Source: an uncultured Actinomycetota bacterium | Lineage (GTDB): Bacteria > Actinomycetota > Actinomycetes > Propionibacteriales > Nocardioidaceae | Length of the DNA stretch: 64,000 bases | Direction of reading: 5' to 3' | NCBI GenBank assembly: GCA_963759885.1 | Contig: CAVXBA010000001.1 | Span: 268,323-332,322 of the forward strand | In this document: piece after piece, positions 1,147-18,361 of the stretch | How the letters are laid out: each line of letters begins with the position of its first letter | Numbering within the stretch: position 1 is the stretch's first letter | The notes under the pieces: model-generated | The model's input: only the letters and a program-made list of their open reading frames with translations | Told to the model about the DNA's origin: nothing | Database searches by the model: none | Program-made: the position numbers and the translations under genes

Positions 1147-1212
1147 GGGTTCGCTCACCCCGAGAACGTACGCCACCTGTCCATCTCCGAGCCTGTCCCG
1201 ACATCGAGACCA

Positions 1213-1900
1213 CCGCTCGTCTCCGGCCACCGCCTGACCGTTTCCCGGCGAGTGTCGGAAGACGTACGTCACACCAGCCGAGAGGTGACCGTATGCAGAC
1301 GAGTGCCGGAAAACGAACGCCACACCAGCCGAGCGCAGTTGCCGAGCGCCCACCGTTTGCCGGCGAGTGTCGGACAACGAACGCCACACCAGCCGAGAGC
1401 GGACCGTATGCAGACGAGTGCCGGACAACGAACGCCACACCAGCCGAGAGCGGACCGTATGCAGACGAGTGTCGGACAACGAACGCCACACCAGCCGAGC
1501 AGCCGACCGTATGCAGACGAGTGCCGGACAACGAACGCCACACCAGCCGCCAGCCGACCGTTACCCGGCGAGTGACGGAAGACGAACGCCACACCAGCCG
1601 AGCGCCGACCGTATGCAGACGAGTGCCGGACAACGAACGCCACACCAGCCGCGAGCCGACCGTTACCCGGCGAGTGCCGGACAGACGAACCCCACACCAG
1701 CCGAGCGCCGACCGTATGCAGACGAGTGTCGGACAACGAACGCCACACCAGCCGAGCGCCCACCGTTGCCAGGCGAGTGTCGGACAACGAACGCCACACC
1801 AGCCGAGCGCCCACCGTTTCCAGGCGAGTGTCGGACAACGCACGCCACACCGGCCGAGCGCCCACCGTATGCAGGCGAGTGTCGGAAGACGTACGCCTCA
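1213..1900. repeat. Tandem array, about 12 full plus 2 partial copies of a 51-bp unit
   Basis: Own reading. The unit is GAGTGYCGGACAACGAACGCCACACCAGCCGAG plus an 18-nt tail in 2-3 variants (..GGACCGTATGCAGAC, ..CCACCGTTTSCMGGC, ..CCGACCGTTACCCGGC). Units start at 1250, 1301, 1365, 1416, 1467, 1519, 1570, 1621, 1672, 1724, 1775, 1826 and 1877. The period is 51-52 nt, with one 64-nt unit. All six frames stay open, which explains the stacked track ORFs. Confidence 0.9.
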
Positions 1901-1982
1901 GTCGCCCGGCCCGGCTGTCCAGCGCGTCACGAGCGCGCAATAGCGGCCAGCGCTGGCAGCGCGGCCAGCTCGGCCAGCTCGG

Positions 1983-2207
1983 TCAGCGGGGGGTAGAGAC
2001 GGCTTGGACCACGAGCGGGTCGAGCTGGGAGTCGTCGCGAGCGATCTCCGCAGCCAGGTCCTCGCGCATCCGCGGGTCCCAGAACATCGACACATGCTGG
2101 GCGACAGCGGCAGCCGCCTGGTCATCCGGCAGGTGCGCGAACTGCCGCGCGATGTCGTTGGCCAGCCGGACCACCGGCGGTACCAACGGGACGTCGTGCT
2201 CAACCAC
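1983..2207 (-). CDS. fdsD: Formate dehydrogenase delta subunit (FdsD family)
   Basis: Track ORF 1983..2207. [35 protein letters not shown] matches the FdsD signature (..IA.QF...A...IA.Hi..FWDPRMR). It is the last gene of the fds operon. Confidence 0.8.
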
Positions 2208-2244
2208 GGCGACCCGACGCCGGCGCCGTGTCCCTCGTCGCCCC

Positions 2245-2400
2245 GGACACCGACGCCGACGCTGTGGCCGTCACCGACCCCGACACCGACCCCGACACCG
2301 ACCCCGACACCGACCCCGACACCGACCCCGACACCGACGCCGAGGCCGAGGCCGACACCGACCCCGACACCGAGGCCGACTCTGAGGCGGACCCCGACAC
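2245..2400. repeat. 12-nt microsatellite (GACCCCGACACC)n between the fdsA core and fdsD
   Basis: Own reading. Five perfect 12-nt units at 2276-2335, flanked by degenerate copies. On the minus strand it reads (GV)n, (SG/SV)n or (RC/RG)n, depending on frame. Confidence 0.9.
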
Positions 2401-5213
2401 GCCGGCCGTCTCGACGGGACAGCGCACCCTCGGCGTGATCCGTGGCCAGTCCTTCGCGAGCCTTCGCGACCTGGACGGCGGTCACCTTGTACTCCGGACA
2501 GTTCGTCGCCCAGTCGGAGTTCTCCGTCGTCACGACGTTGGCCCCGGAGACCGGGTGGTGGAACGTCGTGTAGACCACCCCGACCGGCATCCGGTCGGTG
2601 ATCTTGACGCTCATCGTCGTACTGCCCGACCCGGCTGCTCAAGGTGACCTGGTCCCCGTCGCTGATCCCGCGCACCTCCGCGTCGTGGGGGTGCACCTCG
2701 AGCACGTCCTCGGAGTGCCACAGCACGTTGGCGGTACGCCGGGTCTGGGCGCCGACGTTGTACTGCGAGAGGATCCGGCCGGTCGTCAGGATCAGCGGGT
2801 AGCGTCGGGTGCTGCGCTCGGTGGTGGCGACGTACGGCGTCGGGACGAAGTGGCCGAGTCCGCGCGCGAACTCCTTCGTGTGCATGATCTCGGTGCCCGT
2901 CGGGTTGTCGGCGTTGCACGGCCACTGGACGCTACCGACCTTGTCGAGCAGGTCGAACGACACGCCCGCGAAGGTCGGTGTCGTCTGCGCGATCTCGTCC
3001 ATGATCTGGCTGGCGTTGTCGTAGTGCATGTCGTAGCCCATCGCCTGCGCGATCTCGCAGGCGACCTGCCACTCGTGCTTGCCGACCCGCGGCGGCATCA
3101 CGGGGCGGACCCGGTTGATCCGGCGCTCGGCGTTGGTGAAGGTGCCGTCCTTCTCGAGGAACGACGTACCGGGCAGCAGCACGTGCGCGAACTTGGCGGT
3201 CTCGTTGATGAACAGGTCCTGGACGACGAGCAGGTCCAGCGCACCGAGCGCGGCATGCACGTGCTGGGTGTTCGGGTCGGACTGCGCGACGTCCTCGCCC
3301 TGGATGAACAGCGCGCGGAAGGAGCCGTCGAGCGCGGCGTCGAACATGTTGGGGATCCGCAGTCCTGGCTCGGCCAGGATCGTCGAGCCCCACAGGTCGT
3401 CGTAGATCGCCCGCACGTTCGGGTCCGACACGTGCCGGTAGCCCGGAAGCTCGTGCGGGAAGGAGCCCATGTCGCACGAGCCCTGCACGTTGTTCTGGCC
3501 GCGCAGCGGGTTGACGCCGACACCTTCGCGGCCGATGTTGCCGGTGGCCATGGCCAGGTTGGCCATTCCCATCACCATCGTGGAGCCCTGGCTGTGCTCG
3601 GTGACGCCGAGACCGTAGTAGATCGCGGAGTTGGGACCTGCCGCATACATCCGAGCGGCCGCGCGCAGGTCCGCCGCGTCCACGCCGGTGATGTCGGCCA
3701 GTGCCTCCGGGCTGTTCTCCGGCAACGCGATGAAGTCGGCCCATTCCTGGAACCCCTCGCACCGCTCGGCCACGAAGTCCTCGGCGATCAGGCCCTCGGT
3801 GACGACGACATGGGCCATCGCGTTGATCACCGCGACGTTGGTCCCTGGTGCGAGCTGCAGGTGGTACGACGCCTCGACGTGCGGCGTGCGGACCAGGTCG
3901 ATCCGGCGGGGGTCGACGACGATCAGCTTGGCGCCCTCGCGCAGCCGCCGCTTCATCCGGGAGGCGAAGACCGGGTGGCCGTCGGTCGGGTTGGCACCGA
4001 TCACGACCATCACGTCGGCCTGGTCCACGGACTTGAAGTCCTGCGTCCCGGCCGACGTGCCGAACGTCTGCTTCAGGCCGTACCCCGTCGGTGAGTGGCA
4101 GACCCGCGCACACGTGTCGACGTTGTTGTTGCCGAAGGCGGCGCGCACCATCCGCTGGACGACGTACACCTCCTCGTTGGTCGTTCGTGACGAGGTGATG
4201 CCGCCGATCGCACCGGCGCCGTGCTCCGCCTGGATCTCCCGGAAACGCCGGGCCACGAAGCCGATCGCCTCGTCCCACTCGGCCTCGCGCCACTCGTCGG
4301 TGATCTTCTCCCGCATCAGCGGCTTGAGGACCCGGTCGGCATGGCTCGCGTATCCGAACGCGAACCGGCCCTTCACACAGGAGTGGCCCTCGTTGGCGCC
4401 GCCGTCCTTGTAGGGCACCATCCGGATCAGCTCGCTGCCCCGCAGCTCGGCCTTGAAGGAGCACCCCACTCCGCAGTAGGCGCACGTCGTCAGCACCGAG
4501 CGGGTCGGCATGCCGAGCTCGACGACGGACTTCTCCTGCAGGGTCGACGTCGGGCACGCCTGGACACAGGCGCCGCACGAGACGCACTCGGAGTCCAGGA
4601 AGCTCTCTCCCGCGCTGGCGGAGACCACGGAGTCGAAGCCGCGACCGGAGATGGTGAGCGCGAACGTGCCTTGCACCTCTTCACACGCACGCACGCATCG
4701 CGAGCAGACGATGCACTTGCTGGGGTCGAAGTCGAAGTAGGGGTTGCTGGTGTCCTTGGGCGCCGCGAGGTGGTTGTCGCCGGCGTAGCCGTAGCGGACG
4801 TCGCGCAATCCGACGACGCCGGCCATGTCCTGAAGCTCGCAGTCCCCGTTGGCCGGACAGGTCAGGCAGTCCAGCGGGTGATCGGAGATGTAGAGCTCCA
4901 TCACGTTGCGACGCAGCCGGGCGAGCTTGTCGCTCTGGGTCGTGACCTTCATCCCGTCGGAGCAGGGCAGCGTGCACGACGCGGGCGTGCCCTTGCCGCC
5001 CTCGACCTCGACCAGACACAGACGACACGACCCGAACGGCTCGAGGCTGTCGGTCGCGCACAGCTTGGGTACGTCGACCCCGGCCAGCGCGGCAGCGCGC
5101 ATCACCGAGGTGCCTTCGGGCACGCTGACCGGCTGGCCGTCGATCTCGAGCGCGACGGTGGCCGGACCGGGCCGCTCGGGGGTGCCGAGGTCGGGTTCTT
5201 TGATGAGCGTCAT
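2271..5213 (-). pseudogene. fdsA: NAD-dependent formate dehydrogenase alpha subunit (Mo-bisPGD, Cys type), frameshifted near 2619-2630 as sequenced; 3' end unresolved
   Basis: Starts MTLIKEPDLG at 5213, with an ATGA overlap onto the fdsB stop. Motifs: 2Fe-2S CATDSLEPFGSCRLC; 4Fe-4S CIVCSRCVRACEE and CVSCGACVQACP; CAYCGVGCSF; active site CARVCHSPTG. The conserved C-terminus MSVKITDRMPVGVVYTTFHHPVSGANVVTTENSDWATNCPEYKVTAVQV lies in another frame (track ORF 1898..2614). Confidence 0.9.
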
Positions 5214-6844
5214 GGTGTGACCTCCGTGGTGCCTGCCCCTTGGGTGGCGGGCTGTTGCGGCGCTGCGTGCCGGTCGACGAGCTCGACCGTGGCGTGGGGG
5301 GGTGGGGTGACTCCGGGGCGGTCGAAGTCGTCGGGGAAGTGTTCGATGGCGCTGCGGACCGGCATGGGTGTCAACCCACCCATCGCACACAGCGAGCCCT
5401 CGACCATCGTCTCGCACAGGTCGTCGAGCAGGATCAGGTTGGCGTCGCGGTCCTGGTCGGCGATGATCTTGTCGATCACCTCGACGCCGCGCACCGAGCC
5501 GATCCGACAGGGCGTGCACTTGCCGCACGACTCCTCCGCACAGAACTCCATCGCGAACCGTGCCTGAACCGCCATGTCGACCGTGTCGTCGAAGACGACG
5601 AGTCCGCCGTGCCCGACCATGGCACCGGCCGCCGCGAACGCCTCGTAGTCGAGCGGGAGGTCGAACTGGTCCACCGGCAGGTAGGCGCCCAGTGGGCCCC
5701 CGACCTGCACCGCCCGGACCGGCCGACCGGACCGGGTCCCACCGCCGTAGGTGTTGACCAGGTCGCCCAGGCTGATGCCGAACGCGGTCTCCACGATGCC
5801 GCCGCGCGCGATGTTGCCGGCCAGCTGGAAGACCTGGGTGCCGCGCGACCGGTCGACCCCCAAGGCGGCGTACGACGCTCCGCCGTCTGCGAGCACGCCC
5901 GGCACGCTGGCCAAGGTGATCACGTTGTTGACCACCGTCGGCTTGCCGAACAGCCCGGCCAGGGCGGGGATCGGCGGCTTCGGCCGGATCACCCCACGCT
6001 TGCCCTCGAGGCTCTCCAGCATCGAGGTCTCCTCGCCACAGATGTAGGCGCCTGCGCCCATCCGGAGGGCGAGGTCGAACGATGTGTCCGAACCCAGCAC
6101 CGAGGTGCCGAGCAGGCCGCGGCTGTAGGCGATCTCGATCGCGGTGCGCAGGGTCTCCGCCGCGGCGGGGTACTCCGAGCGCAGGTAGAGGTAGCCCTGC
6201 GTCGCGCCGACCGCGCGCGCGGCGATCAGCATGCCCTCGATCAGGCAGAACGGGTCGCCTTCCATCAGCATCCGGTCGGCATAGGTGCCGCTGTCGCCCT
6301 CGTCGGCGTTGCAGCAGATGTACTTCTGGTCGGCCTGGGCCTGCAGCACGGTCCGCCACTTGATCCCGGCCGGGAAACCAGCGCCGCCCCGGCCGCGCAG
6401 TCCGGAGGTCACGACCTCCTCGGTCAGCTGCTCAGGGGACAGGTCGAGCGCGCGGCGCAGTCCCACGAGGCCGCCATGCTGCTGGTAGTCGTCGAGAGAC
6501 AGCGGGTCGATCACGCCGACCCGGGCGAACGTGATCCGGTGCTGGTCGCGCAGCCACGAGATCTCGTCGGTCGGTCCGTGGCAGAGCTCGTGGTCGGCCC
6601 CCCGAAGCAGACCGGCGTCGACCAGACCGGCGACATCGTCAGCGGTCACCGGGCCGTAGGCCACCCGCCCACGGTCGGTCTCGACCTCGACCAGAGGTTC
6701 GAGCCAGAGCAGCCCACGAGAGCCGTTGCGGACCACGTGGGCCGCGTCGCCGAGCCGAGAGCTCAGGGCGTCGGCGACGTCGTCGGCGCCGACCGACCGC
6801 GCGGCGCTGTCGCGCGGGACGTAGACGGTGACCGGCGTGCTCAC
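5210..6844 (-). CDS. fdsB: Formate dehydrogenase beta subunit (NuoF-like NAD/FMN/4Fe-4S subunit)
   Basis: Track ORF, 544 aa. Motifs GLRGRGGAGFPAGIKW, AYICGEETSMLESLEGKRG and ESCGKCTPCRIG. Start and stop codons overlap both neighbouring genes. Confidence 0.92.
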   Translation of the reverse strand: MSTPVTVYVPRDSAARSVGADDVADALSSRLGDAAHVVRNGSRGLLWLEPLVEVETDRGRVAYGPVTADDVAGLVDAGLLRGADHELCHGPTDEISWLRDQHRITFARVGVIDPLSLDDYQQHGGLVGLRRALDLSPEQLTEEVVTSGLRGRGGAGFPAGIKWRTVLQAQADQKYICCNADEGDSGTYADRMLMEGDPFCLIEGMLIAARAVGATQGYLYLRSEYPAAAETLRTAIEIAYSRGLLGTSVLGSDTSFDLALRMGAGAYICGEETSMLESLEGKRGVIRPKPPIPALAGLFGKPTVVNNVITLASVPGVLADGGASYAALGVDRSRGTQVFQLAGNIARGGIVETAFGISLGDLVNTYGGGTRSGRPVRAVQVGGPLGAYLPVDQFDLPLDYEAFAAAGAMVGHGGLVVFDDTVDMAVQARFAMEFCAEESCGKCTPCRIGSVRGVEVIDKIIADQDRDANLILLDDLCETMVEGSLCAMGGLTPMPVRSAIEHFPDDFDRPGVTPPPHATVELVDRHAAPQQPATQGAGTTEVTP

Positions 6845-7336
6845 GGGCGTGACTCCTCAGCCAGCAGGGCGTCGAGCCGGGCGTTGTCGACGCGACCGAA
6901 CAGCCGCCCGTCGAGCTCGACCGTCGGCCCGAGCGCGCAGTTGCCGAAGCAGAACACCTGCTGGAGCCCGACGTCGCCGTCCGGGGTGGACTGACCGAAG
7001 TCGACGCCGAGCCGCGACGTGGCGTGAGCCGCCAGCTCTCGCGCGCCGACACTCTGACAGGCCTCGGCGCGGCAGATCCGCAGGGTCCTTCGCGGAGCCG
7101 GCCGGTCGCGGAAGTCGTGGTAGAAGGTGACGACGCCATGGACCTCGGCCCGGGACAGGTTGAGCTCCTGCGCGAGGAGCCCGATCGCCGCGGGCGGGAT
7201 CCAGCCGATGGAGCCCTGCAGGGTGTGCAGGATCTCCATCAGCGGGCCGGGCTCGTCGTGGTGGGCGGCGACGGCGGAGCTGACCGCGTCGGCGAGCGCG
7301 GCGGCGTCGAACTCGGCTGCGCTGGTCCGGTGACAC
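6841..7336 (-). pseudogene. fdsG: Formate dehydrogenase gamma subunit (NuoE-like 2Fe-2S); N-terminus probably displaced by a +1 insertion near 7306-7325
   Basis: Track ORF 6841..7239 carries CRAEACQSVG...FCFGNCALGP. Upstream of ATG 7239 the same frame stays coding-like (EFDAAALADAVSSAVAAHHDEPGPL, third positions G/C) but has no start codon before the fchA stop. GTG 7336 (VSPDQRS) is in the -1 frame. Confidence 0.7.
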
Positions 7337-7344
7337 GGAGCTGC

Positions 7345-7966
7345 TCACGGCACCAGCCTGCCCCAGATCGCCTCGGTCAGTCGATGGGCACGCTCGAGCG
7401 TCTTGTCCACGTCTCCCATTGTGCTCCGCAGCCGCGACCTGGACGGTGCCGTCAGCGATGGCCTGCACGTTGGTCTCCACCGTGAGCCGGGAAGCGGTGC
7501 AGGCGGAGCGGACGGCCTCGACGCCCGCGGCCAGGTCGGCCAGGGCCTGCGGGTTGACGACGGGAGTCAGCCGCTCCGCCAGGTCGACCAGGCGCTCAGC
7601 CAGCTCCACCACCTGGAGGGGCGGCATCGTGGCCGCCTCCAGCGCTGCCGAGATCGCGCTCGCCCGGTCCGCGCGCTGCTCGTCATCGTGCCTGGGCAGG
7701 CGGTACGCCGCCGCCACGTCGCCGAAGGTCCGCTCGTCTGCCGTGGCCGCGGCCAGACTGCGGGCGCGGCAGTCGTCGGCGGCCTGAGCGATCTGTCCGA
7801 CGTCGTCGGCCGCGTCCGGGAACCGGTCAGCCGGCGTACACCGTGCGGCCATGCCGATCAGTGCCGCGCCCAGCCCCGCCTGGACCGCTGCCGCGGCACC
7901 GCCACCGGGGGTGGGGTTGCCGCCGGACAGCCGCTCGAGGAAGCCGTCGAGGGTCTCCGTCGGCAT
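7345..7966 (-). pseudogene. fchA: Methenyl-THF cyclohydrolase / formimidoyl-THF cyclodeaminase family protein, +1 insertion near 7415-7423
   Basis: The N-terminus [31 protein letters not shown] is the cyclodeaminase/cyclohydrolase signature. After ..TVQVAAAEH the plausible C-terminus MGDVDKTLERAHRLTEAIWGRLVP* (stop 7345-7347) is in the next frame. The literal ORF instead runs on through fdsG to 6857. Confidence 0.75.
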
Positions 7967-8150
7967 CGGTCCTGCCTTCTGTCAGCGTGGTGGGAGGCTG
8001 GATGAGGTCACCGGACCGTCGCTGTTGCGCATGGCACAACACGACGGCGCTAGGCGAGACAACCCAGGGGTTGCAAGGCTAACGTGGCGGCGGCCCCGCG
8101 TCACGGGTTCGGCGGGCCCATCATGCGATGACGACGTGGAAAGGGTCGAC

Positions 8151-9830
8151 ATGCTGTCGGACATCGAGATCGCCAACGCGGCGAAGCTCAAGCACATCTC
8201 GGAGGTCGCGCGCGACACTCTGGGGATCGACGAGGAGTACCTCGTCCCTTACGGACATTTCAAGGCCAAGGTCGACCTCGGCTATCTGACCAGCCTCGCG
8301 GACCGCCAGGAGGGTCAGCTGATCCTGGTCACGGCGATGTCGCCCACCCCGGCCGGGGAGGGCAAGACCACGACGACGGTGGGGCTCACCGACGCGCTGC
8401 ACGGTCTCGGACACCGCACGATCGCCTGCCTGCGCGAGCCGTCGATGGGACCGGTCTTCGGGATGAAGGGCGGTGCGGCCGGCGGCGGCTATGCCCAGGT
8501 CGTACCGATGACCGACATCAACCTGCACTTCACCGGTGACTTCGCCGCGATCGGGGCGGCCAACAACCTCTTGGCCGCGCTGATCGACAACCACGTCCAC
8601 CACGGCAACGCCCTGGACATCGACGTCCGGACGGTCACCTGGAAGCGCGTCCTGGATCTCAACGACCGCGCCCTGCGCGACACCGTCGTGGGCATGGGTG
8701 GAACGGCGAACGGCTTCCCGCGCGAGGAGGGCTTCGACATCGTCGTCGCCTCGGAGCTGATGGCGATCTTCTGCCTGACGGAGTCGTGGGCCGACCTGAA
8801 GAAACGGATCGGCGACATCGTCATCGGCTACGCCAAGGACAAGACTCCGGTGACCGCACGGGATCTCGGCGCCGACGGCGCGATGACCGTGCTGCTGCGC
8901 GACGCGCTCGCGCCCAACCTGGTGCAGACCCTGGAGCATGCTCCGGCGTTCGTGCACGGAGGACCTTTCGCCAACATCGCACACGGCTGCTCCTCGGTGA
9001 TGGCGACCCGGGCCGGTCTGCGGTTGGCGGACTTCGTCGTCACGGAGGCGGGCTTCGGCGCGGACCTCGGTGCCGAGAAGTTCGTCGACATCAAGTGCCG
9101 CAAGTCCGGCTTGCGTCCGGCTGCCGCCGTCGTGGTCGCCACGGTGCGAGCGCTGAAGTTCCACGGCGGGATCGAAGCGACGGACCTGAACGTCGAGAAC
9201 CTCGAGGCCATCGAGAAGGGCATGGCCAACCTGACCCGGCACCTGCACAACATCCGCGAGGTCTACGGCATCCCCTGTGTCGTGGCCGTCAACCGGTTCC
9301 CGAGCGACACCGACGCCGAGGTGGCGAAGGTGGTCGACCTGGTGGCGGCCGAGGGGGTCCAGGCGTTCCCTGCCACCCACTTCGTCGACGGGAGCGCCGG
9401 CGCCCGACCGCTGGCGGAAGGGCTGCTGCGCCTGCTCGACGAGCCTTCGCCGTACCGGTTCTCCTTCACCTACGACAACGAGCAGAACCTGACCGAGAAG
9501 GTCGAGACGATCGCCACCCGGTTGTACGGCGCCGCGGAGGTCACCTGGGACCCGAAGGCGCGGCGTCGCCTCCGGCAGGTCGAGCGGGACGGCTTCAGCC
9601 ACCTGCCGGTCTGCGTGGCCAAGACCCAGTACTCCTTCTCGACCAACGCCGCCTCCAGGGGCGCTCCCCTGGGTCACTCACTGCACGTGCGAGAGGTCCG
9701 ACTTTCTGCCGGCGCCGGCTTCGTGGTGCTGGTGTGCGGTGACGTGATGACGATGCCCGGACTGCCGAAGGACCCGTCAGCCGCCCGGATCGACCTCACC
9801 GACGACGGAACCATCCTCGGCCTGTCCTGA
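8151..9830 (+). CDS. fhs: Formate-tetrahydrofolate ligase
   Basis: Inside track ORF 7851..9830. ATG 8151 gives [20 protein letters not shown], and [15 protein letters not shown] is the FTHFS P-loop. About 559 aa, as expected for the family. Confidence 0.95.
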
Positions 9831-9954
9831 CCCGCACCCTTCCCGCCCATCGCGAGGGCTGTCGAATCTTGACAGTCAAGACACACCGGGCGTACACCCG
9901 TGAGGGAGGGTTCCGCGGCACGGCTGGGCCGTCCCACCATGTGTGGGGGTAATC

Positions 9955-11004
9955 ATGAGTGTCGACTCCGCCGTGGCCGATTCGAGATCGGTCGCGACTG
10001 CGGCCGCGGCCTTGCTCCGATCGGTGCGAGGCCAGGGAGCGGACGTCCAGACTGCCGTGGACCACCTCGAATTGCAGGCCCGGCGAACCATCGAGTCGTC
10101 GGTCCAGGGCTTCGACGCTGCGGACATCGACGTCAGCGAGGAGGACGTGCTGGCGGAGGCTCTCTCCCAGATCGGGATCGGCGTGACCCTCGTGACAGCG
10201 GAGTCGGCACTGGAGCAACCGCAAACGGTGGACCAACTTGACCGTGCCGTCACGTCCCTCGAAGCAAACGCGACAACGCTTGAGTCAGGCGGCGCCGTCG
10301 AGGCTGCGACCCACGGGTTCGATACAGCTCCCGATGGTGTCCTGCTCTCTGTCGACGACGCCGCGATCCAATCCCTCGACGAGATGTCCGCGACCGCCGC
10401 TGACGTTGCCTCGACCCTCCTCGACAAGGCCCGGAAACCGTTGATGACGTCAGTGCCCGAGCCGCTTCGCAACCCTGTTACCGCCCACGCGGACCAGATC
10501 GCGGGTCGGCTCCTGCGCTGGGGCCTTCGCGCCGTCGCCCGTGGACTGGACCTCCTGCTGAATCTCGTCGACCTCGCCGCGATCGAACGGGCACGCAACA
10601 AGCTCGAACGCATCCTGGCGGGCCTCGACCAGGGGGACGAACCGCACGTCCTGATGGCGTTCGCGATCGGAGCCCAAGAGGTCCGCGACCGGCTGGCACC
10701 GCCCGCCGGCGACTCCCGCTCCTCCGTCGACGACGCACGGCGCCGAACCGTTGAGGATCTCGCCGCGCTCGCCGACCGGTTCGCACGGCTTTGCGTCGTG
10801 CTGCGGCGGGTTGCCGCTGCCATCGTCGGGCTGGCCGGTGCGCTGGCCATGGTCCAGATCACCCTGCCGCACGCGACAGCAATCTCGATCGTCGGGCTCT
10901 GCCTGGTGCTCGGTGCGGTCGTCGTCCTCGGGAGGGACTACACCGGCGCCACTGATCTTCCTGGACGGGTCCGCGGAGTACGGTTCCTCGTCGGCGGGGC
11001 CTGA
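9955..11004 (+). CDS. Hypothetical tail-anchored membrane protein (operon gene A)
   Basis: Track ORF 9943..11004. ATG 9955 follows a GGGGG RBS-like run; GTG 9943 is also possible. The N-terminal ~290 aa are acidic, Ala-rich and helical, with no signal peptide. Two C-terminal hydrophobic helices: VAAAIVGLAGALAMVQITLP and ISIVGLCLVLGAVVVLG. I recognise no family. Confidence 0.7.
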   Translation: MSVDSAVADSRSVATAAAALLRSVRGQGADVQTAVDHLELQARRTIESSVQGFDAADIDVSEEDVLAEALSQIGIGVTLVTAESALEQPQTVDQLDRAVTSLEANATTLESGGAVEAATHGFDTAPDGVLLSVDDAAIQSLDEMSATAADVASTLLDKARKPLMTSVPEPLRNPVTAHADQIAGRLLRWGLRAVARGLDLLLNLVDLAAIERARNKLERILAGLDQGDEPHVLMAFAIGAQEVRDRLAPPAGDSRSSVDDARRRTVEDLAALADRFARLCVVLRRVAAAIVGLAGALAMVQITLPHATAISIVGLCLVLGAVVVLGRDYTGATDLPGRVRGVRFLVGGA

Positions 11005-11005
11005 C

Positions 11006-12151
11006 ATGCCAGTCGATCAGGGCAATCTGCTGGCGCTGAGGACAGCGGGCGAACGCGCCCGGATGCAGGACCTGCAATCGCTGCTTGCCCACAGCCTGGC
11101 CTCACCGGATGACGATCAACGACGCACGGCGCTCTCCAACCGCATCGACGATCGCGACAAGTGGGCTGCTGACCTGCACGGCCGTCCGGACGCCTGGGAG
11201 GAATGGCACAGCCAGGCCAGGTCCGCCGACACCCTCGTGGACGAGATCGTCGCCTTGCTGATGACCCGTCTTCTTCGTTCCGAGGGACTCGACGGTGGCG
11301 CCTTCGACTCGGCAGAGGCCTTGATCCATGAACTCACTCAGGCCGCGGGGGTGAAGCCTCTCGTCCTGGCACACACCCAGGAGATGGAGTCGATCGACCA
11401 CACCCGCAGCACCGTGTCCTTGCGGTTCCCGGGGTCGCGAATCTGGGATGTGCCATTCCTGGGTCACGAGTTCGGTCACCATGCAGTCGAGCAGGTTCAC
11501 CACCTCGAGCCGGCACTCTCGGATCGCAGGCCACTGCAGGAGATTGCAGACGCCACCGCCCAAACCCTCTCGGCAGCGGGCGAGACCGCCGACCGTTCGC
11601 GGAAGCACGCCGACGAGCTGATGGCAGATGTCCTCGCCACGATCAGCTGTGGGCCCACGTACCCCGTCGCCTGTCTTGTGCTGCGTGTTCCGGGCGACGC
11701 CCAAGCCTCCCGCGCCAGCAGCAGCCACCCCTCCTGGCGCGACCGGGTGGCGGTGATGCGCGAGACGCTCGACGCACTCACCGACATCACCGGCCACGCC
11801 CGCTACCAGCAACAGCGAGAGACCGTCGTCGATCCCCTGGCCTGTCAGGTTGTTGGCTCTCACCCCGCTGTCGCCGCCGCCGGAGAGCTCGCCTCGCGAC
11901 AAGCTGTCAAAGCCGTTCTCAAACACCGACCCGACCTCGTCTACCGCGATGCCGACCGCGCGATCCAGGTCTCGGGGCAACTTTCGTCGAAAGCCGAACG
12001 CAGGCTCCCCGAAGGCGCGTCGGTCCGCGCCATCGTCGACGGGGCGTGGCGCTGGCGACTTTCGCATCCCGGAGATGAGGAAACCACGATCGCAGGCATC
12101 GCCACCGGGTGGTGCCGCACGGTCCACGCAGCCCGAGGAGCCCCACGATGA
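11006..12151 (+). CDS. Hypothetical zincin-like metallopeptidase (HExxH), operon gene B
   Basis: ATG 11006 lies 1 nt after the gene A stop (TGAcATG). Motif IWDVPFLGHEFGHHAVEQVHH, with a downstream HADELMADVLATISCGP helix. Cytoplasmic: no signal peptide or TM segment. The fold assignment rests on motifs only. Confidence 0.7.
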   Translation: MPVDQGNLLALRTAGERARMQDLQSLLAHSLASPDDDQRRTALSNRIDDRDKWAADLHGRPDAWEEWHSQARSADTLVDEIVALLMTRLLRSEGLDGGAFDSAEALIHELTQAAGVKPLVLAHTQEMESIDHTRSTVSLRFPGSRIWDVPFLGHEFGHHAVEQVHHLEPALSDRRPLQEIADATAQTLSAAGETADRSRKHADELMADVLATISCGPTYPVACLVLRVPGDAQASRASSSHPSWRDRVAVMRETLDALTDITGHARYQQQRETVVDPLACQVVGSHPAVAAAGELASRQAVKAVLKHRPDLVYRDADRAIQVSGQLSSKAERRLPEGASVRAIVDGAWRWRLSHPGDEETTIAGIATGWCRTVHAARGAPR

Positions 12152-13614
12152 CCGAGACCGCTGATCTGCTCAAGATCCGCCTGGACGCGCTCGAGCTCGA
12201 CATCGCCAAGGTCGGACAGTGTGTGGACGTTGCCAAGAAGCGCGGTCTGCTGCTCGAGGACGCCATGGATGCGCTCCGCCCTCAGAAGCGAATTCTCAAG
12301 GCCTTGTCGGGTCGTCTCAACGACCTCGCGGACGCCATGGCCGAGGAACCAGAGCTCCGAGAGAGCCTCGCCGACGCTGTCATGGGACTCGACCAGGAAC
12401 TGCTCAAGGCACCCAAGATGATCGCCTCGGTCATCGACGCCGTCGGCGACACGGAGAACCGGCTCACCAAAGTGATGGCTACCACGGTCACGCTCGAGGA
12501 CGAGAACCTCACGCGCTTGCAGTCCAGCCTCAACCAACGCTGCGACAAGGTGAGGGACAAGGTTGTCGCACTGCGGCGCAAGGTGGAGGTCACCGGCGCC
12601 GATGAACGACGACTCCAGTGGCTCGAGTACCAGCAGCTGCTCGAGGACCAGGCGCGTCCGGTCTTCATGGAGTACGTCGACTTCCTCGGCGGTCTGACCG
12701 TGAGAGACACCGGCCTCGACGACCAGGTCTGCGAGATGACCGATGCGCTGCTCACCCGCTTCACGGGAGCGACGAACAAGTCACTTCCGCTGCCGGCTCG
12801 ACAGGCCGCTTTGGGCAGTGCGCTGGACAGCATCGTGCTGCTCGGTTTTCCCGAATGGTCGATCTGGGGCATCCCGTTGGTCGCGCACGAGGTCGGACTG
12901 GCCTACGCCAAGGACCGCAACAACCCAGCGCTCGCAGAGCTCATCGACCGCTTCGTCCTGAAGCGAACCGCACCCGACCAGACGGCCGGAACCCCGGGTA
13001 CGCCAGGCCGGACGAAGAACTATGTCAAGGAGCTTCTCGCTGATGCGTTCGCCGCGTACACCTTGGGGATGTCCTACGCGTGCGCGGCGCTGCTGCTCAG
13101 GTTGAGCCCTCGCCACGACGAGCCATACGATCCCGAGACGCCTCACGACATCGAACGTGCGCGCGTCATCATGCTGACCATGCTCATCGGCGGTGACACC
13201 GCCCCGCAGGCCGGTGGGTCGTTCACTGACGACGTGTCGAGGCTCGAAGAGACCTGGCGGAAAGCCGTGTCGGCGCACGCCGGCCCGGCAGCCGCAGCCG
13301 AGGCAGTCCAGGAGTCGATCGGGCCACCGCCCGAGACTGATTGGGTCGACGACTTCACCGAGGCGGCGGTTTCTCATTTCCGCCAGATGACCATGATCAT
13401 TCGGCCGTACGACGACGAGCGATGGAGGGCTTCGGAGCTCTGGTTGGAGGCCCTTCGTGAACAGACTGTCCCCCCAGGCTGGAACCCGGCCAGCGACGCC
13501 GTTCCCGATGTCCTGACGGCCGTCTGGCGTCTTCGGCTGACCCAAACAAACGACCCTGACGAACTCGCGAGCCAGGTCAAGCAGCTGTGGGTCGAGACCG
13601 GACGAGGAGGCTGA
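12148..13614 (+). CDS. Hypothetical coiled-coil protein, catalytically degenerate paralogue of gene B (operon gene C)
   Basis: ATG 12148 overlaps the gene B stop (ATGA), with a GAGGAG RBS upstream. About 170 aa of heptad-rich N-terminus. IWGIPLVAHEVGLAYAKD aligns with the HExxH block of B but lacks the second His. KELLADAFAAYTLGMSYACAALLLRL aligns with DELMADVLATISCGPTYPVACLVLRV of B. Confidence 0.7.
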   Translation: MTETADLLKIRLDALELDIAKVGQCVDVAKKRGLLLEDAMDALRPQKRILKALSGRLNDLADAMAEEPELRESLADAVMGLDQELLKAPKMIASVIDAVGDTENRLTKVMATTVTLEDENLTRLQSSLNQRCDKVRDKVVALRRKVEVTGADERRLQWLEYQQLLEDQARPVFMEYVDFLGGLTVRDTGLDDQVCEMTDALLTRFTGATNKSLPLPARQAALGSALDSIVLLGFPEWSIWGIPLVAHEVGLAYAKDRNNPALAELIDRFVLKRTAPDQTAGTPGTPGRTKNYVKELLADAFAAYTLGMSYACAALLLRLSPRHDEPYDPETPHDIERARVIMLTMLIGGDTAPQAGGSFTDDVSRLEETWRKAVSAHAGPAAAAEAVQESIGPPPETDWVDDFTEAAVSHFRQMTMIIRPYDDERWRASELWLEALREQTVPPGWNPASDAVPDVLTAVWRLRLTQTNDPDELASQVKQLWVETGRGG

Positions 13615-13615
13615 C

Positions 13616-16600
13616 ATGGCGATCTCGCGCGAAGCATCGCAGGACCGACTCCGAACGCTGAAGACAGGCACGCAGCGTCACCGCCCTTCGGCGTCCCCAT
13701 CGGCCGACGTCGAGGTCAGTCGGGTCCTGGCCGCGGTCGACCAAGGTGACGAAGACGTCGCCCGTTCGATCCTTCGTCCGATGGGTGGGTCGGCGGGTGG
13801 TCTCCGCACCCGAGTGGAAACTGAGCTCGAAGGCCTCACCGCGCGATCTTCCATCAGCGCTGAGCTGCAGGCGCTGGCCTGGGATGTCCTCTCTCGGTCA
13901 CGCGAGGCACATGGCCGTCACCACGACTCGCTCGAGGCCGCCCGTAACGCCTGGGACACGGCACCGTCACCGGCTCGATCGGCGCGGGTTGCGCTCCTCA
14001 CCCTGCGGTTCGTGGACCTCGATGAGGCAGGCGCCCTCGTCGCCGAAGGCCTGAGGACGTGGCCTGACGACGTGGATCTGCTCAGTGTCGCCGCACTTAC
14101 GGCGTTGGACCTCGGCAACTACGACGATGCCGGCGACCTTCTGGAGCGCGCCTATGAGCAGGACAGCCAACATCCCCTGATGCTCTCAGCGAGGGCGCGC
14201 TTCCTGATCCAGGCCGAGTCGCCGGAGCAGGCGTTGGTCTACGCCCGGGAAGTGGTCAGCGCCGAGCCGGCTCTGGGCCGGGCACTGGTCGCGGTCGCGC
14301 GCAGCGACGCCCAGTCGCTCGACGATGACCCGGGCGTCGTGGACGCCGTCTTGGCAAATCTCCCAACGGACTGGTGGGTGCTGAACAGGTTTGCGCTGGT
14401 GCTCATGACGATCAACCGACTTGACGACGCCCTGGGAGTCCTCGACCACGCGGTTGCTCTTGCGCAGCATCAACCCGTCGTGGTGGGCACCCGTGGCTAT
14501 GTGCAGGCGCTGCGCGGAGATCTGGACTCCGCTGACAGGGATCTCGGGTTGGCCGCTGAGAAAACCGGTGATCCGCAGCTGATGTGGGTTCGTGGCGAGG
14601 TCGCCAGGTTGCGCGGGGACTACACAACGGCGGTTACCGTCTTGTCGACGCTCTCGTCGGACGAGATTCCTAGCGTGGACACGTCCCTCGGCTCGGCCCT
14701 CACCGCTGCTGGTGACCTCCAGGGCGCGCAGGCGGCGTACGAGCGGGCCCTAGGTCGCAACCCGGACGATGTCGAGGCGCTGTGCGGGTTGGGTCAGATC
14801 ATCATGGGTGACGGCGACCTCGCTCGATCAAAGGACTTGTTCGAACGTGCTCGGGCCATCGACCCGCTGCAACCCAGTGCCCATGCTCTGGTCGCCGAGG
14901 CGATGCGACGAGACGGCCACGAGCTCGAGGCGCTCGAGGAGTTCGACCGCGCGCTGGAGCTCAGCCCCAGCTACGCGTACGCCTTGGCCTCCAAGGGGCA
15001 GGCACTTCTCTCCCTGGAAAGGCTCGAGGAGGGGATCGAACTGCTGGGGAAGGCCGCCGTGTCGGCCCCAACAACCGCCTGGATCCTCGACGAGCTCGTT
15101 CACGTGGTCGAGGCAGAAACACCAGCGACGGCGGACAGCGTGTTGCGACAGGTCCAGCGGACGATCCGTGCCGCGCAAGGGGACACCGACCCGCTCTGCC
15201 TGCGCAGGGCACGGCTGGCGACACGGCAAGAGCGTTGGTCCGATGCAGAGCGACTCTTCGGAGTAGTTCGACGCACGTACACCGCCGATGCCGGCCTGGC
15301 AGGGGAGCACGCCGACGTGTTGGCGGCCATGGGTCGGCAGACGGAGGCGCTGGGCGTACTCAGTGACATCGCCGATCCGGACGCTGATCTGCGGTGGCGC
15401 AGGATCGATCTGTTGTGGGGCCTGGACCGTCTCGATGAGGCGCACACGGAGCTCGAGCAGCTGTACGACGCCGATAACTCTCCACCTCTGGTGGCGGCCG
15501 CACTCGGCGAGATTCACCGAACCAAGGGGCGTCGCGACCAGGCTCGGCAACTCCTCACATCCGCGCTCGCCAGCGATCCCGAACACGTCTACACGCTGGC
15601 CTCCCTGGGTGCGCTCGAACGTGATGAGGGCAACCTTCAGGAGGCACGCAAACTGTTCAGCAAGGCACTCGAGAAGGACCCCACGTACGCCTTCGCTCTG
15701 GGTCTGTTGCTCACCATCGAGATCGAGACAGGCAACGAGACCGCTGCGCGTGACTTGCTTGAACGCGTCACATCCGAGGACGACCGTGCGCTTGTCGGGG
15801 TGCGTGCCAGTGGTCTGACGGAGCTCGGCGAGTTTGCGGCCGCGTGGCAGATCTGGGACGACTTCGCGATCGAGTACGGCGATGACCCCGATCTGCTACG
15901 TGCCCGAGGTTGGCTGGAGGTCGCCATGGGTCAGACCCAACGGGCGGCACGAAGTTTCCGTGCCTCTGCTGAGGTCGAAGACGTGCCATGGGGGTTGCTG
16001 GCCTCGGTCGACGGCCTGCTCAGGGTCGACCAGGTAGACGTCGCGCTGGAGCACATCGAACGCCAGCGAGACGGCGGGAATGTCTTCTGGAGGTCCGCCT
16101 TGGCCATGGTTTGGTACCACGTCGGCGGGTGGCCCATGTCCGCCAGGCTGGCATCCGCGGGCGCTGCCGCGAGCCCCACGAGCGGCCACATGGCCATCGT
16201 GGCCGCACACGCCCTGCGAATGGACCACCGTCTGGACGAAGCTGTCACGTACGCTCGTGCGGCTGTCAACCTCGCGCCCAACTACACCGCCTGGCTGGTG
16301 ACGCTGGCCGAGAATCTGTGGCTCACCCAGGACGTGGAGACCGCCACTGACGTGTTCGCGGACGTCCTCGAACGGCTTGAGCGCCGAAGCTTCCTCGAGC
16401 CCGACGAGCTGAGCCGCAAAGCCTGGTGCTTGCTTCGGTTGGATCGCCTGGACGAAGCGGCGGACGCGATGCTGCGTACGCTCAGCGCCACGGACCAGAC
16501 AGCGGAAGCCCTGCTGAACCTTCTCCTCATCACCTTGATCAAGGGCGACGCTCAGCAGGCCGAGATGCTGACAGTCCGCATCGCGCGTGAGCTGCGAACC

Positions 16601-16863
16601 GTGCGGCAGTCACGCGCCCGCGGTCTGCTCAGCACTTTCGCCTTCAACCTCCGCTCCGTGGAGGACAGGGTGCCGGAGTCGTCTCGACCGACAGCCAGGC
16701 GTGCACGCGATCAGTGCCAGGACGAGCTGCGCAAGCTGGACAAGGTCCTCGAGGAGGTCACCGCCAAGACGCGATGGGCCACGGATGAGAGCGCGCAAGA
16801 GCCAACGTGCCGGCACAGGCCCGCGCCCCCCAGGTCGACAGTCGGCAGGACATGCACACCTGA
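13616..16863 (+). CDS. Large all-TPR repeat protein, about 1080 aa (operon gene D); 3' end uncertain
   Basis: ATG 13616 lies 1 nt after the gene C stop (TGAcATG, GAGGAGG RBS). Repeated A..Y..AL...P motifs, e.g. AQAAYERALGRNPDDVEAL, ARKLFSKALEKDPTYAFAL and EEFDRALELSPSYAYAL. The literal track ORF runs to 17536, antisense through the next gene. Frame quality decays after about 16790, and a hairpin at 16874-16906 follows a TGA at 16861 in another frame. Confidence 0.75.
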
Positions 16864-16873
16864 CCGCTGTCGA

Positions 16874-16906
16874 CCGGCACCTTTCCGCAGCCGCGGGAGG
16901 TGCTGG
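16874..16906 (+). terminator. Hairpin between convergent gene D and the aldo-keto reductase
   Basis: CCGGCACCT-tt-CCGC-agcc-GCGG-g-AGGTGCTGG gives a 9+4 bp stem, with one G-U pair on the plus-strand RNA. No U-tract follows. Confidence 0.45.
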
Positions 16907-16914
16907 TCAGGGCG

Positions 16915-17940
16915 TCAGCTGCTGCTCGAACCGGCCCACAGGTCGATGCCGGCATTCACGGCGTACTCGTCGATGCGCTCGAGCTCCTCGTCGCTGAAGG
17001 CCAGGTTGTCCAGCGCCTTGACGTTCTCCTCGAGCTGCTTGACGCTGCTGGCGCCGATCACCAACGACGTCATCCGCTCGTCCCGGAGCGCCCAGGCCAG
17101 GGCCAGCTGGGCCAGCGACTGCCCACGGTCCTCGGCGATCGCGTTGAGTCCCCGGATCCGGGCCATGTTCTCGTCGTTGAGGAAGCTCCTGTCGAGGCTG
17201 CCTTCCGACGCCGCGCGCGATCCTTCGGGGATGCCGTCGAGGTACTTCCCGGTGAGCATGCCCTGGGCCAGGGCGGTGAAGCCGATGCAACCCGCCCCGA
17301 CCTCCTCCAGCGCATCGAGCAGGTCGGGCTCGATCCAGCGGTTCAGCATCGAGTACGACGGTTGGTGGATGAGCAGCGGCGTACCGAGGTCGCGGAGGAT
17401 CGCGGCGGCCTCGCGGGTGCGCTCGTCGGAGTACGACGAGACCCCGACGTACAGCGCCTTGCCCTGGCGGACCGCGCTGTCCAGCGCGCCCATCGTCTCT
17501 TCGAGCGGCGTGTCCGGGTCGAAGCGGTGGCTGTAGAAGATGTCGACGTAGTCCAGGCCCATCCGCTGCAAGGAGTCATCGAGGCTGGACAGCAGATACT
17601 TGCGGGACCCGAGGTCACCGTACGGGCCGGGCCACATGTCCCACCCGGCCTTGGTCGAGATGACCAGCTCGTTGCGGTACGGCGCGAGGTCCTCGGCCAG
17701 CAGCCGACCGAAGGCCTCCTCGGCGGCGCCGTAGGGAGGGCCGTAGTTGTTGGCCAGGTCGAAGTGCGTGATTCCGAGATCGAACGCCCGCCGGACGATG
17801 GCGCGCTTGACCTCGGCGTCCCGGTCGTCGCCGAAGTTCTGCCACAGACCCAGCGACAACAGCGGGAGCCGGAGCCCGCTGCGTCCGCAGCGCCGGTAGT
17901 CCATCGAGTCGTAGCGGTCGTCAGCGGCGAGGTAGGTCAC
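16915..17940 (-). CDS. Aldo/keto reductase, YghZ/Gpr-like (L-glyceraldehyde-3-phosphate reductase family)
   Basis: Inside track ORF 16915..18057. GTG 17940 gives VTYLAADDRYDSMDYRRCGRSGLRLPLLSLGLWQNFG, matching the YghZ-type N-terminus. Other AKR blocks: HFDLANNYGPPYG and IHQPSYSMLNR. Confidence 0.88.
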   Translation of the reverse strand: MTYLAADDRYDSMDYRRCGRSGLRLPLLSLGLWQNFGDDRDAEVKRAIVRRAFDLGITHFDLANNYGPPYGAAEEAFGRLLAEDLAPYRNELVISTKAGWDMWPGPYGDLGSRKYLLSSLDDSLQRMGLDYVDIFYSHRFDPDTPLEETMGALDSAVRQGKALYVGVSSYSDERTREAAAILRDLGTPLLIHQPSYSMLNRWIEPDLLDALEEVGAGCIGFTALAQGMLTGKYLDGIPEGSRAASEGSLDRSFLNDENMARIRGLNAIAEDRGQSLAQLALAWALRDERMTSLVIGASSVKQLEENVKALDNLAFSDEELERIDEYAVNAGIDLWAGSSSS

Positions 17941-18034
17941 GCCGCCAGTCTGGCAAAGGACTGACAACCCGGCACATCCGCACCAGGGAGGTAGCCCGGC
18001 GGGGCGGGTCAGGTCCGCCTGACATGATCGGTCC

Positions 18035-18361
18035 ATGGACGTTGCCTCGATCCACACCCTGGCCGAAGACCAGCTCGCGCTCGCAGTGCAGGCGCCAAGC
18101 GGGCGGAGCTCCGCCCGTGTCTACGGCCGACCGACCGCGCGATTGCGCCAGACCCTCGTCGCGCTTGCCGCCGGCCGCAAGATGGGCGAGCACAAGAGCC
18201 CCGGCGACGCCTCGCTGCTCTGCCTGCAAGGCGGCGTGATCCTCCATGCCGGTGATGCCAGTGTCGAGCTCGGGCCAGGCGATCTGCTGGCGCTCCCGCC
18301 TCAGCGACACGAGATCGAAGCGGTCAGTGCTTCGGTCCTCCTGCTGACCGTCGCGCACTGA
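18035..18361 (+). CDS. Small cupin-domain protein
   Basis: Track ORF, 108 aa. GEHKSPGDASLLCLQGGVILHAGDASVELGPGDLLALPPQRHEIEA is a cupin-like beta-barrel pattern. Confidence 0.55.
   Translation: MDVASIHTLAEDQLALAVQAPSGRSSARVYGRPTARLRQTLVALAAGRKMGEHKSPGDASLLCLQGGVILHAGDASVELGPGDLLALPPQRHEIEAVSASVLLLTVAH

Follow-up and report, generated by a model that had tools for sequence, protein, structure and literature searches.

A conserved four-gene cassette combining a predicted zincin metallopeptidase, its degraded paralogue, a giant TPR protein and an exchangeable membrane-hairpin protein

The locus and the question it raises

What function might be served by four tightly packed genes whose products could be placed in no named system? 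The question is raised by a locus of an uncultured bacterium of the family Nocardioidaceae (Actinomycetota), which lies within a 64,000-nucleotide stretch of contig CAVXBA010000001.1 (GenBank assembly GCA_963759885.1, positions 268,323 to 332,322, forward strand); this whole stretch is referred to below as the window. Four same-strand (+) open reading frames (ORFs), A to D, had been described here from the sequence alone, and our ORF calls agree with that description apart from the end of D. Gene A (9955-11004; 349 amino acids, aa) encodes a protein with no family match, made up of an all-helical cytoplasmic domain, a hydrophobic hairpin towards the C-terminus and a tail that is conserved. Gene B (11006-12151; 381 aa) encodes a predicted gluzincin-like metallopeptidase of an unnamed family. 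Gene C (12148-13614; 488 aa) encodes a pseudo-zincin, a full-length B paralogue that has an additional helical stretch at its N-terminus and whose active site is degraded. Gene D (13616-16863) encodes a giant tetratricopeptide repeat (TPR) protein of ~1081 aa in the intact allele, the literal ORF of the window being 13616-17536.

The answer has two parts of unequal firmness. The cassette is a widespread, unnamed and tightly conserved module. As to its function, A-B-C-D may form one unit, a cytoplasmic, membrane-associated proteolytic switch made up of a sensor, a protease and a membrane effector, a reading that we would place just short of probable.

Conservation and distribution of the cassette

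None of the products of A, B and C reached a curated family cut-off in Pfam-A 2025 or NCBIfam r20, and the sole entries listed for them were at chance level (E 0.005-0.06, far below cut-off). That the four proteins fit no characterized system, as had been noted from the sequence, was borne out by searches of Pfam, NCBIfam, PADLOC, PDB and, with structural models of A and B, Foldseek (nothing at E <0.09). Word-indexed searches yielded 28 close homologues of B and 14 of A, every one annotated as hypothetical, and a third such search with a broad profile added only two more usable distant proteins. An exhaustive profile search of 1.84 billion representatives recovered 1,105 B/C-like clusters (defined at 50% identity) at E≤1e-3, 645 of them at E≤1e-10, none of which is named. 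The close clade was found at 8 loci in a scan of one genome per species (185,579 species); all eight belong to Actinomycetota or to unassigned metagenome-assembled genomes (MAGs), and they include Umezawaea endophytica, an Actinoplanes sp. and a Nocardioides MAG. A metagenome scan with a narrower alignment returned at least two loci.

Gene context was read at ~20 independent loci with an overall GC content of 35% to 76%. The co-occurrence of the genes extends beyond the genome in which they had been noticed: the order A-B-C-D is kept while B identity falls from 64% to ~25%, in unrelated chromosomal contexts and over the whole of that GC range, and we therefore regard the cassette as a unit of selection. 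Stops and starts overlap or adjoin in the conserved arrays. In 16 of the 20 informative loci the gene immediately upstream of B encodes an A-type protein, called either by hidden Markov model or by a hairpin followed by a tail of the form [GA][RM]DY.D....L..RV.GV. At all loci with sequence beyond B the next gene is of the C type, including the cut-off ORFs of L011, L016 and L017, which carry the C-type N-terminal signature, and every sufficiently long contig has a gene for a large TPR protein after C. Whatever its function, a large family (~1,100 clusters) is hereby defined that has no Pfam, NCBIfam, PADLOC or PDB representative and stands in a strictly conserved four-gene context, which makes it directly amenable to experiment (cloning, mutants).

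The flanks of the cassette differ among loci. The window and locus L002 both have a formate-tetrahydrofolate ligase (FTHFS) gene upstream and a reductase gene downstream. L001 is flanked by a glycoside hydrolase 15 gene upstream and a PadR gene downstream, while dxr and rseP lie upstream in L013. Genes for an integrase, a resolvase, TraG and ParA are found near L018, DDE and rve transposases near L019, and IstB and a resolvase near L021. These differences indicate that the cassette is a portable unit. Mobility-type genes (transposases, integrase, resolvase or type IV secretion system) adjoin it in L018, L019, L021 and the contig encoding protein P0143. The patchy distribution, the lowest GC content in the window and the mobility genes near some loci support the view that the cassette is probably accessory in character.

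The same features bear on a different reading, which we consider unlikely, namely that the cassette is a non-lethal membrane module of regulated proteolysis or quality control. In that case A would serve as a tether, or as a regulator or substrate anchored in the membrane, and B, C and D would process A, or clients recruited by the TPR protein, on envelope or developmental stress, with signalling or turnover as the outcome. Such a module would suit the housekeeping neighbours, with no mobility or defence genes nearby, of the window and most actinobacterial loci. Sequence features place all four proteins in the cytoplasm or at the membrane, as this reading would have it, and a combination of TPR and zincin is known in envelope quality control from BepA, whose TPR part gives weak matches to D in the NCBIfam scan. 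The cassette, however, includes no transcription factor, sigma factor or kinase; the close clade is as patchy as described above, occupies differing chromosomal positions and is atypical in composition; and the replacement of A at some loci by a gasdermin or by a protein named X (see below) is hard to square with a dedicated regulator substrate.

In L008, from a Nocardioides MAG (positions 23-8431), the cassette directly follows same-strand genes resembling those of phage tails or contractile injection systems; the upstream block encodes a weak match to Tail_P2_I, a DUF6519 protein (E 2e-48) and a PG_binding_1 protein. This arrangement recalls the Streptomyces contractile injection systems, which need a membrane protein to fire (PMC12237407), and the cassette might by analogy be an accessory of such a system, supplying for example a membrane adaptor and processing enzymes. 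We give almost no credence to this idea, as L008 is one locus of ~20, and tail-like genes are missing around the cassette in the window and at the other loci.

Protein B, a predicted metallopeptidase

The proposed proteolytic switch requires a protease, and B is the candidate. Its enzymatic signature, the only one previously noted in the cassette, is HEFGH at aa 154-158 (11465-11479, +), located on a helix of residues 151-163. The downstream element that had been likened to that of gluzincins was also recovered: ELMAD (aa 204-208; 11615-11629, +) lies on helix 195-215, and its E204 is a candidate third zinc ligand. In the AlphaFold2 (AF2) model of B, which has a mean predicted local distance difference test (pLDDT) score of 92.5, an N-terminal helical region is followed by a three-stranded sheet (residues 120-124, 129-131 and 136-140), the HEFGH helix, the helix with E204..D208 and a helical C-terminal domain. 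B thus combines the features by which gluzincins are recognized: a conserved HExxH on a helix, a sheet before it and an invariant Glu on the following helix. Invariant across 93 diverse relatives (~20-60% identity) are H154, E155, H158, E204, D208, G216, P242, R247 and W348. The strict retention of HExxH, Glu and Asp in one domain per system argues for catalysis, and B is predicted to be an active metallopeptidase and the only catalytically competent subunit of the cassette.

Comparison of the B model with PDB structures by Foldseek gave no significant neighbour (best E 0.099, for ACE; probability ≤0.35). The weak matches are mostly zincins (ACE/ACE2, M61, collagenases, IrrE and jannalysin), IrrE and jannalysin being found at E 3.4 with probabilities of 0.13-0.35 and query TM-scores of ~0.14-0.19. 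A zincin-like model of B had been named as something that the prediction depended on; the gluzincin topology of the AF2 model and the consistent kind of its weak matches agree with one. Searches of the PDB with the B sequence and with a 93-sequence profile returned only chance coiled-coil matches. Against Pfam, the 93 relatives matched five different families, each through a single member and none of them twice; one member of the B family matches the anthrax lethal factor model at E 1e-4. Ten long or fused forms of the family gave nothing consistent in Pfam, and seven fused forms had no family.

B resembles the ImmA/IrrE (M78) proteins, jannalysin-type minigluzincins, MtfA and lethal factor in its HExxH, the Glu ~45 residues later and the sequence pattern E-x-x-A-D/N-x-x-A. 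Unlike these small gluzincins, B (taken here as 380 aa) has helical domains at both ends, ~115 aa at the N-terminus and ~150 aa at the C-terminus, that are not seen there, and Pfam gave no match to Peptidase_M78 or another zincin family for B or for 92 of its 93 relatives. Membership in the ImmA/IrrE family was rejected, there being no Peptidase_M78 match and no gene for a helix-turn-helix repressor in the cassette.

The lack of a significant structural match to a characterized peptidase would also fit a reading in which B is not a peptidase acting on A. It might instead act on another substrate (lipid-linked, peptidoglycan-derived or a small-molecule amide) or bind in a metal-dependent manner, with A-D forming a structural or assembly complex; at least half of the zincin-like domains of each system are dead, so binding functions do exist in the family. 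We find this improbable. HExxH, Glu and Asp are strictly kept in one domain per system throughout ~1,100 clusters, and every consistent weak structural neighbour is a peptidase, to which the match with lethal factor in one family member may be added.

Protein C and the pairing of intact and degraded domains

C had been called a dead paralogue of B, and both halves of this description proved correct. The two proteins are related by BLASTP at E 1e-12, and alignment of their families with hhalign, which pairs B 8-377 with C 94-485 over 364 columns, gave a probability of 100% and E 2e-56. The N-terminal extension of C is shorter than the ~170 aa originally estimated: in this alignment the excess over B is ~95 aa. 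At the position of HEFGH, C has HEVGL (aa 247-251; 12886-12900, +), in which the second zinc-binding His is replaced by Leu.

The distinction holds at every locus examined when the domains are aligned to the B profile. HE[FL]GH, E204..D208 and HP[SA]241-243 are kept in 20 of 20 B-type domains, whereas every C-type domain lacks at least one of HExGH, E204..D208 and HPS. The second His of C-type domains is mostly changed to Leu, Gln, Met, Arg or Ser. The HPS element (aa 241-243 of B; 11726-11734, +) separates the two types, being kept in B-type domains and lost in C-type ones, among which all but one have lost its His.

A sub-family of 787-868-aa tandem fusions joins a degraded domain (HDYGH, AYAHGQ or HELGL) to an intact HEFGH domain within one protein. 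Two of these proteins, P0102 and P0118, were read in their loci (L013, 10001-12400, and L020, 6113-8497); the others are P0122, P0152, P0170, P0186 and P0187. At both fusion loci a separate C gene and a TPR gene still follow, giving three zincin-like modules per system. That dead and live domains occur in one chain is an argument for B-like domains working as hetero-oligomers, and lends support, by extension, to the earlier idea that B and C may be physical partners.

The C orthologue of L005 (U. endophytica DSM 103496) is frameshifted at ~11650-11660, within the conserved segment TVRDTGLDD; in this cultured type strain, otherwise a convenient host for experiments, the split marks a pseudogene or else an error of sequencing. 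In L018 (11439-12596) and L021 (11175-15927), from two long-read soil assemblies, the C and D genes are split into short ORFs, which could reflect gene decay or indel errors.

The TPR protein D

The view of D as composed of TPR-like repeats throughout agrees with its Pfam matches, in which TPR families score at E 1e-17 to 5e-37 and no other kind of family is matched. TPR_19 (5e-37), TPR_2 (6e-35), TPR_14 (8e-27) and others together cover residues ~64 to ~980. The NCBIfam scan of D gave only generic TPR models (25 of the 26 families listed).

Protein A and its replacements

A is acidic and Ala-rich, as described previously (47 Asp and Glu against 32 Lys and Arg; 17% Ala). It alone among the four proteins has hydrophobic segments (Kyte-Doolittle 19-residue windows >1.6). 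The two segments that had been noticed are present, at aa 286-303 and 308-326 (10810-10932, +), separated by a conserved four-residue, Pro-containing loop, LPHA. They are not at the extreme C-terminus as had been thought, because a 24-residue tail with the motif GRDYTGATDLPGRVRGV (10930-10980, +) follows the hairpin; the tail and the N-terminal domain are predicted to face the same side of the membrane. The hairpin is kept in all distant A-type proteins. The GRDYTGATDLPGRVRGV tail is nearly invariant across the 14-sequence alignment A2 and is still recognizable, in the degenerate form given above, at loci where B is only 25-35% identical. The AF2 model of A (pLDDT 79; predicted template modelling score 0.82) is all helix, and Foldseek found no significant or informative neighbour for it in PDB or BFVD. 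Comparison of the A family with the B and C families by hhalign revealed no common adaptor domain, and A did not match the PADLOC bacterial gasdermin (bGSDM) model even at E 10.

A conserved C-terminal motif next to an HExxH enzyme and a TPR protein resembles the components described for FxSxx-COOH maturation (PMC7159879), and the cassette might be a peptide or protein maturation system of this kind, or one like those of leader peptidases of ribosomally synthesized and post-translationally modified peptides, with the tail of A as the product. Like the cassette, the FxSxx-COOH system is actinobacterial and combines an HExxH enzyme with a large TPR protein; unlike it, the cassette includes a pseudo-enzyme and a membrane protein and has no radical-SAM enzyme or small precursor. 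We give this reading very little credence. In the NCBIfam scan B matched no HExxH maturase and D only the generic TPR models (25 of 26), no locus has a gene for a radical-SAM enzyme, cyclase, transporter or small precursor, and A is a 350-aa membrane protein whose tail is predicted to be cytoplasmic and to follow a hairpin. Membership in the FxSxx-COOH group itself was rejected on the lack of an NCBIfam model match for B and of a radical-SAM or precursor gene at any locus.

The position of A is the one that is swapped in relatives of the cassette. In L011, a 9.4-kb contig of 53% GC, there is no A gene; a 275-aa bacterial gasdermin (PADLOC bGSDM, E 3e-55; PDB 7n51/8sl0, E 2e-22) is encoded 146 bp from B in divergent orientation, and no recognizable protease other than B was found on the contig. 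L015 and L021, whose B proteins are 52% identical to each other, also have no A. A conserved protein of ~250 aa, X, is encoded directly after D and translationally coupled to its end in both (11989-12747 in L015, where the genes overlap by ATGA, and 15955-~16500 in L021) and ends in ...KLSGFKRGGW...LGFD[TS][DE]DDPG.LDEL. The possibility that X is a gasdermin was rejected, since Pfam, PADLOC (to E 10), PDB and BLASTP searches and an hhalign comparison with the L011 gasdermin were all negative. In the P0143 contig a 134-aa gene precedes B in place of A. Since A is the single swapped position, it is more likely to be an output (effector or substrate) than a passive tether, and a constant B-C-D core with an exchangeable partner is the pattern that would be expected if it were.

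Two of these loci have further features. L011 has the look of a defence island (1022-7640), with a TIR-nSTAND-WD40 gene, the gasdermin gene and three partial N-termini of ComM/YifB-like proteins (Lon_C/ChlI); the three copies suggest that comM may have been the target of repeated insertion. In the P0143 contig, genes for a 399-aa unknown protein, a caspase-like Peptidase_C14, a Y4kD_C protein and an IS110 transposase follow B-C-D (7212-10701).

The G-F-[D/E] motif

A contains two conserved motifs of the form [G/R]-F-[D/E]-[T/A/S], both in low-confidence linkers of the model. The first, G52-F53-D54 (10108-10116, +), stands at the start of a linker in which residues 53-55 have pLDDT <50; the second, G121-F122-D123 (10315-10323, +), lies in the disordered loop 112-132, a block with pLDDT 56-65. 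F53, F122 and D123 are invariant in A2. Both sites are candidates for cleavage or docking. Distant A proteins of L004, L009, L013, L018, L019 and L020 carry one to four copies of the motif. In the other 43 ORFs of the window GF[DE] occurs at a background of 0.44 per 1000 residues, and it is absent from B, C and D.

The replacements of A have comparable sequences near their ends, LGFD[TS][DE]DDPG being 20 residues from the C-terminus of X and FGFEG 27 residues from that of the L011 gasdermin. In bacterial gasdermins the protease-accessible loop immediately precedes an inhibitory peptide of ~16-30 residues (10.1101/2021.06.07.447441), and the position of the motif in the L011 gasdermin matches that of this putative cleavage loop. 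As the motif is short and was seen after the fact, we take it for a lead that can be tested, pointing to a site of cleavage or docking, and not for evidence that cleavage occurs.

Proposed mechanism

We hypothesize that D, with its ~1,000-residue TPR array, would serve as a ligand-binding sensor or scaffold. B would be the protease, and C its dead partner, regulator or adaptor, probably in a hetero-oligomer with B. A, an autoinhibited helical protein anchored by its C-terminal transmembrane hairpin, would be the output of the system. B would cut A in the exposed linkers carrying G-F-[D/E], and the freed hairpin-plus-tail fragment might perturb the membrane, leading to growth arrest or death. 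A plausible use would be abortive infection or another conflict response, and at variant loci a gasdermin or X would take the role of A.

A proteolytic switch, or a conflict or quality-control module, was what the original prediction had suggested. A match to a known system, a lack of co-occurrence and a B model with no zincin fold would each have spoken against it; all three were looked for and none was found. The proteolytic-switch function itself we infer, along with the protease activity of B, the role of A, X and the gasdermin as substrates, activation by cleavage, sensing by D and the physiological role.

Several observations weigh against the proposed mechanism, which is based on computation. 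Foldseek support for the zincin fold of B is non-significant (best E 0.099). The G-F-[D/E] motif has only three residues and was noticed post hoc, and distant A proteins of L007, L008 and L012 are free of it. For A, the role of a tether or of a sensor would fit equally well. The link to gasdermin comes from one short contig, in which the gene is divergent from B and not co-oriented, and X showed no similarity to anything in Pfam, PADLOC (to E 10), PDB or BLASTP searches. PADLOC-DB 2.0 contains no match for A, B or C, and for D only weak TPR-type ones (E of at least 0.004). No member of the family was found among PLSDB plasmids and INPHARED phages (tblastn with B and a distant relative) or in a scan of IMG/VR. 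The neighbours are housekeeping genes at the window and at most actinobacterial loci: 50 neighbours from nine actinobacterial loci, examined with Pfam and PADLOC, serve mainly in metabolism or transport, and PADLOC matched them only generically (ATPase, kinase, TatD), which indicates no general enrichment in defence islands.

Comparison with known systems

The systems that appear closest in logic to the cassette are those of bacterial gasdermins and TPR-protease switches such as Craspase; on the comparisons that follow it is a member of none. In a survey of bacterial gasdermins, 43 of 50 adjoined a protease that removes a C-terminal peptide of ~20 aa, and the dedicated proteases of these operons carry fused TPR, WD40, LRR or NACHT sensors (Johnson et al., 10.1101/2021.06.07.447441). 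The cassette would share with them a repeat sensor, a protease and a membrane-permeabilizing protein that becomes active only when an exposed loop is cut at a specific site, and its relative in L011 has B adjoining a genuine bacterial gasdermin with G-F-E near the C-terminus. It differs in that its protease is a predicted zincin and not a caspase-like, CHAT, trypsin or subtilase enzyme, its putative sensor is a separate protein of 1,000 aa, and a dead paralogue is obligatory. A, moreover, is all-helical with a transmembrane hairpin and has no similarity to gasdermins, a gasdermin being found only in L011.

Craspase is formed in type III-E CRISPR systems by the TPR-CHAT protease Csx29, which cleaves Csx30. 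Common to it and to the switch proposed here would be a TPR-associated protease that is inactive until a sensor event and then makes a site-specific cut in a partner from the same operon. The protease class is a different one, the cassette has no CRISPR components or RNA guide, and its output would be a membrane protein. Effectors with two transmembrane helices are found in CBASS, Pycsar and retron systems; they are nucleotide-activated, their helices are usually N-terminal and they are thought to disrupt the membrane. Like A, they have a small cytoplasmic domain on two membrane helices. The activation proposed for A is instead proteolytic, and PADLOC gave no sequence similarity between these effectors and A. 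A search of the literature found no described system of zincin, pseudo-zincin, TPR protein and membrane hairpin, nor a metalloprotease partner of bacterial gasdermins.

A broader proposal seems to us possible rather than probable. The B family may represent unrecognized effector-activating metalloproteases, with a live and dead zincin pair, a free-standing TPR sensor and recognition of G-F-[D/E]; the A proteins may be new alpha-helical membrane effectors, activated by proteolysis and interchangeable with gasdermin; and the two together may constitute a widespread (~1,100 clusters), undescribed cell-death or immune system. If this is true, a metalloprotease branch would join the caspase-, trypsin- and subtilase-type proteases that arm pore-forming cell-death proteins of bacteria and fungi, and a new helical, non-gasdermin membrane effector would be activated in the same way. 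The cassette would also be a clear example of a prokaryotic proteolytic switch with a pseudo-enzyme as obligatory partner, encoded by its own gene in some cases and fused to the active domain in others.

Organization of the locus in the window

The junctions between the four genes are as first described: TGAcATG at 11002-11008, ATGA at 12148-12151 and TGAcATG at 13612-13618. The purine-rich ribosome-binding sites reported for them correspond to the G/A-rich stretches GGCGGGG, GAGGAG and GGACGAGGAGG upstream of the junctions, and a Shine-Dalgarno-like run, GGGGG, lies 5 nt before the ATG of A. The same 349-, 381- and 488-aa calls for A, B and C were obtained from L010, a 99.9% identical contig of an independent assembly. 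Together with conservation across phylum-level GC differences, these identical calls led us to reject an ORF artefact.

The end of D differs from that originally assigned at 16906. Codon 16904-16906 is TGG, and the ORF of the window stays open to 17536 (1306 aa), its 240 extra codons (region 16861-17536) running antisense through the convergent aldo/keto reductase gene. Comparison of L010 with the window by blastn revealed a single 2-bp gap in 7137 aligned positions: the window has AGAG at 16798-16801 (+) where L010 has AG, an insertion that shifts the frame of D 21 codons ahead of its stop. D of L010 ends at the TGA that matches 16861-16863 of the window and has 1081 aa; orthologues of D have 1060-1068 aa. 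The AG duplication touches only the last ~20, non-conserved residues of D and is either a real 3′-terminal frameshift allele or an assembly error.

The composition of the cassette had been thought to match that of the host. This is so only roughly: no other 6.9-kb stretch of the 64-kb window is as low in GC (66.5% against 69.0%), and the GC content at third codon positions is 0.77-0.81 in its genes against 0.86-0.96 in neighbouring ones. Scans of the window for tRNA genes, Rfam families, promoters, terminators and flanking repeats gave nothing informative, with no tRNA, Rfam family or bounding repeats detected. The flanking genes are housekeeping genes, as had been stated: profile matches identify FTHFS (E 5e-255) and an aldo/keto reductase (E 6e-72), the latter encoded at 16915-18057 on the − strand and convergent with D. 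The mechanically called ORF of FTHFS extends over 7851-9830 and starts ~100 codons ahead of the profile match (8151-9830); the true start of this gene is probably near 8150.

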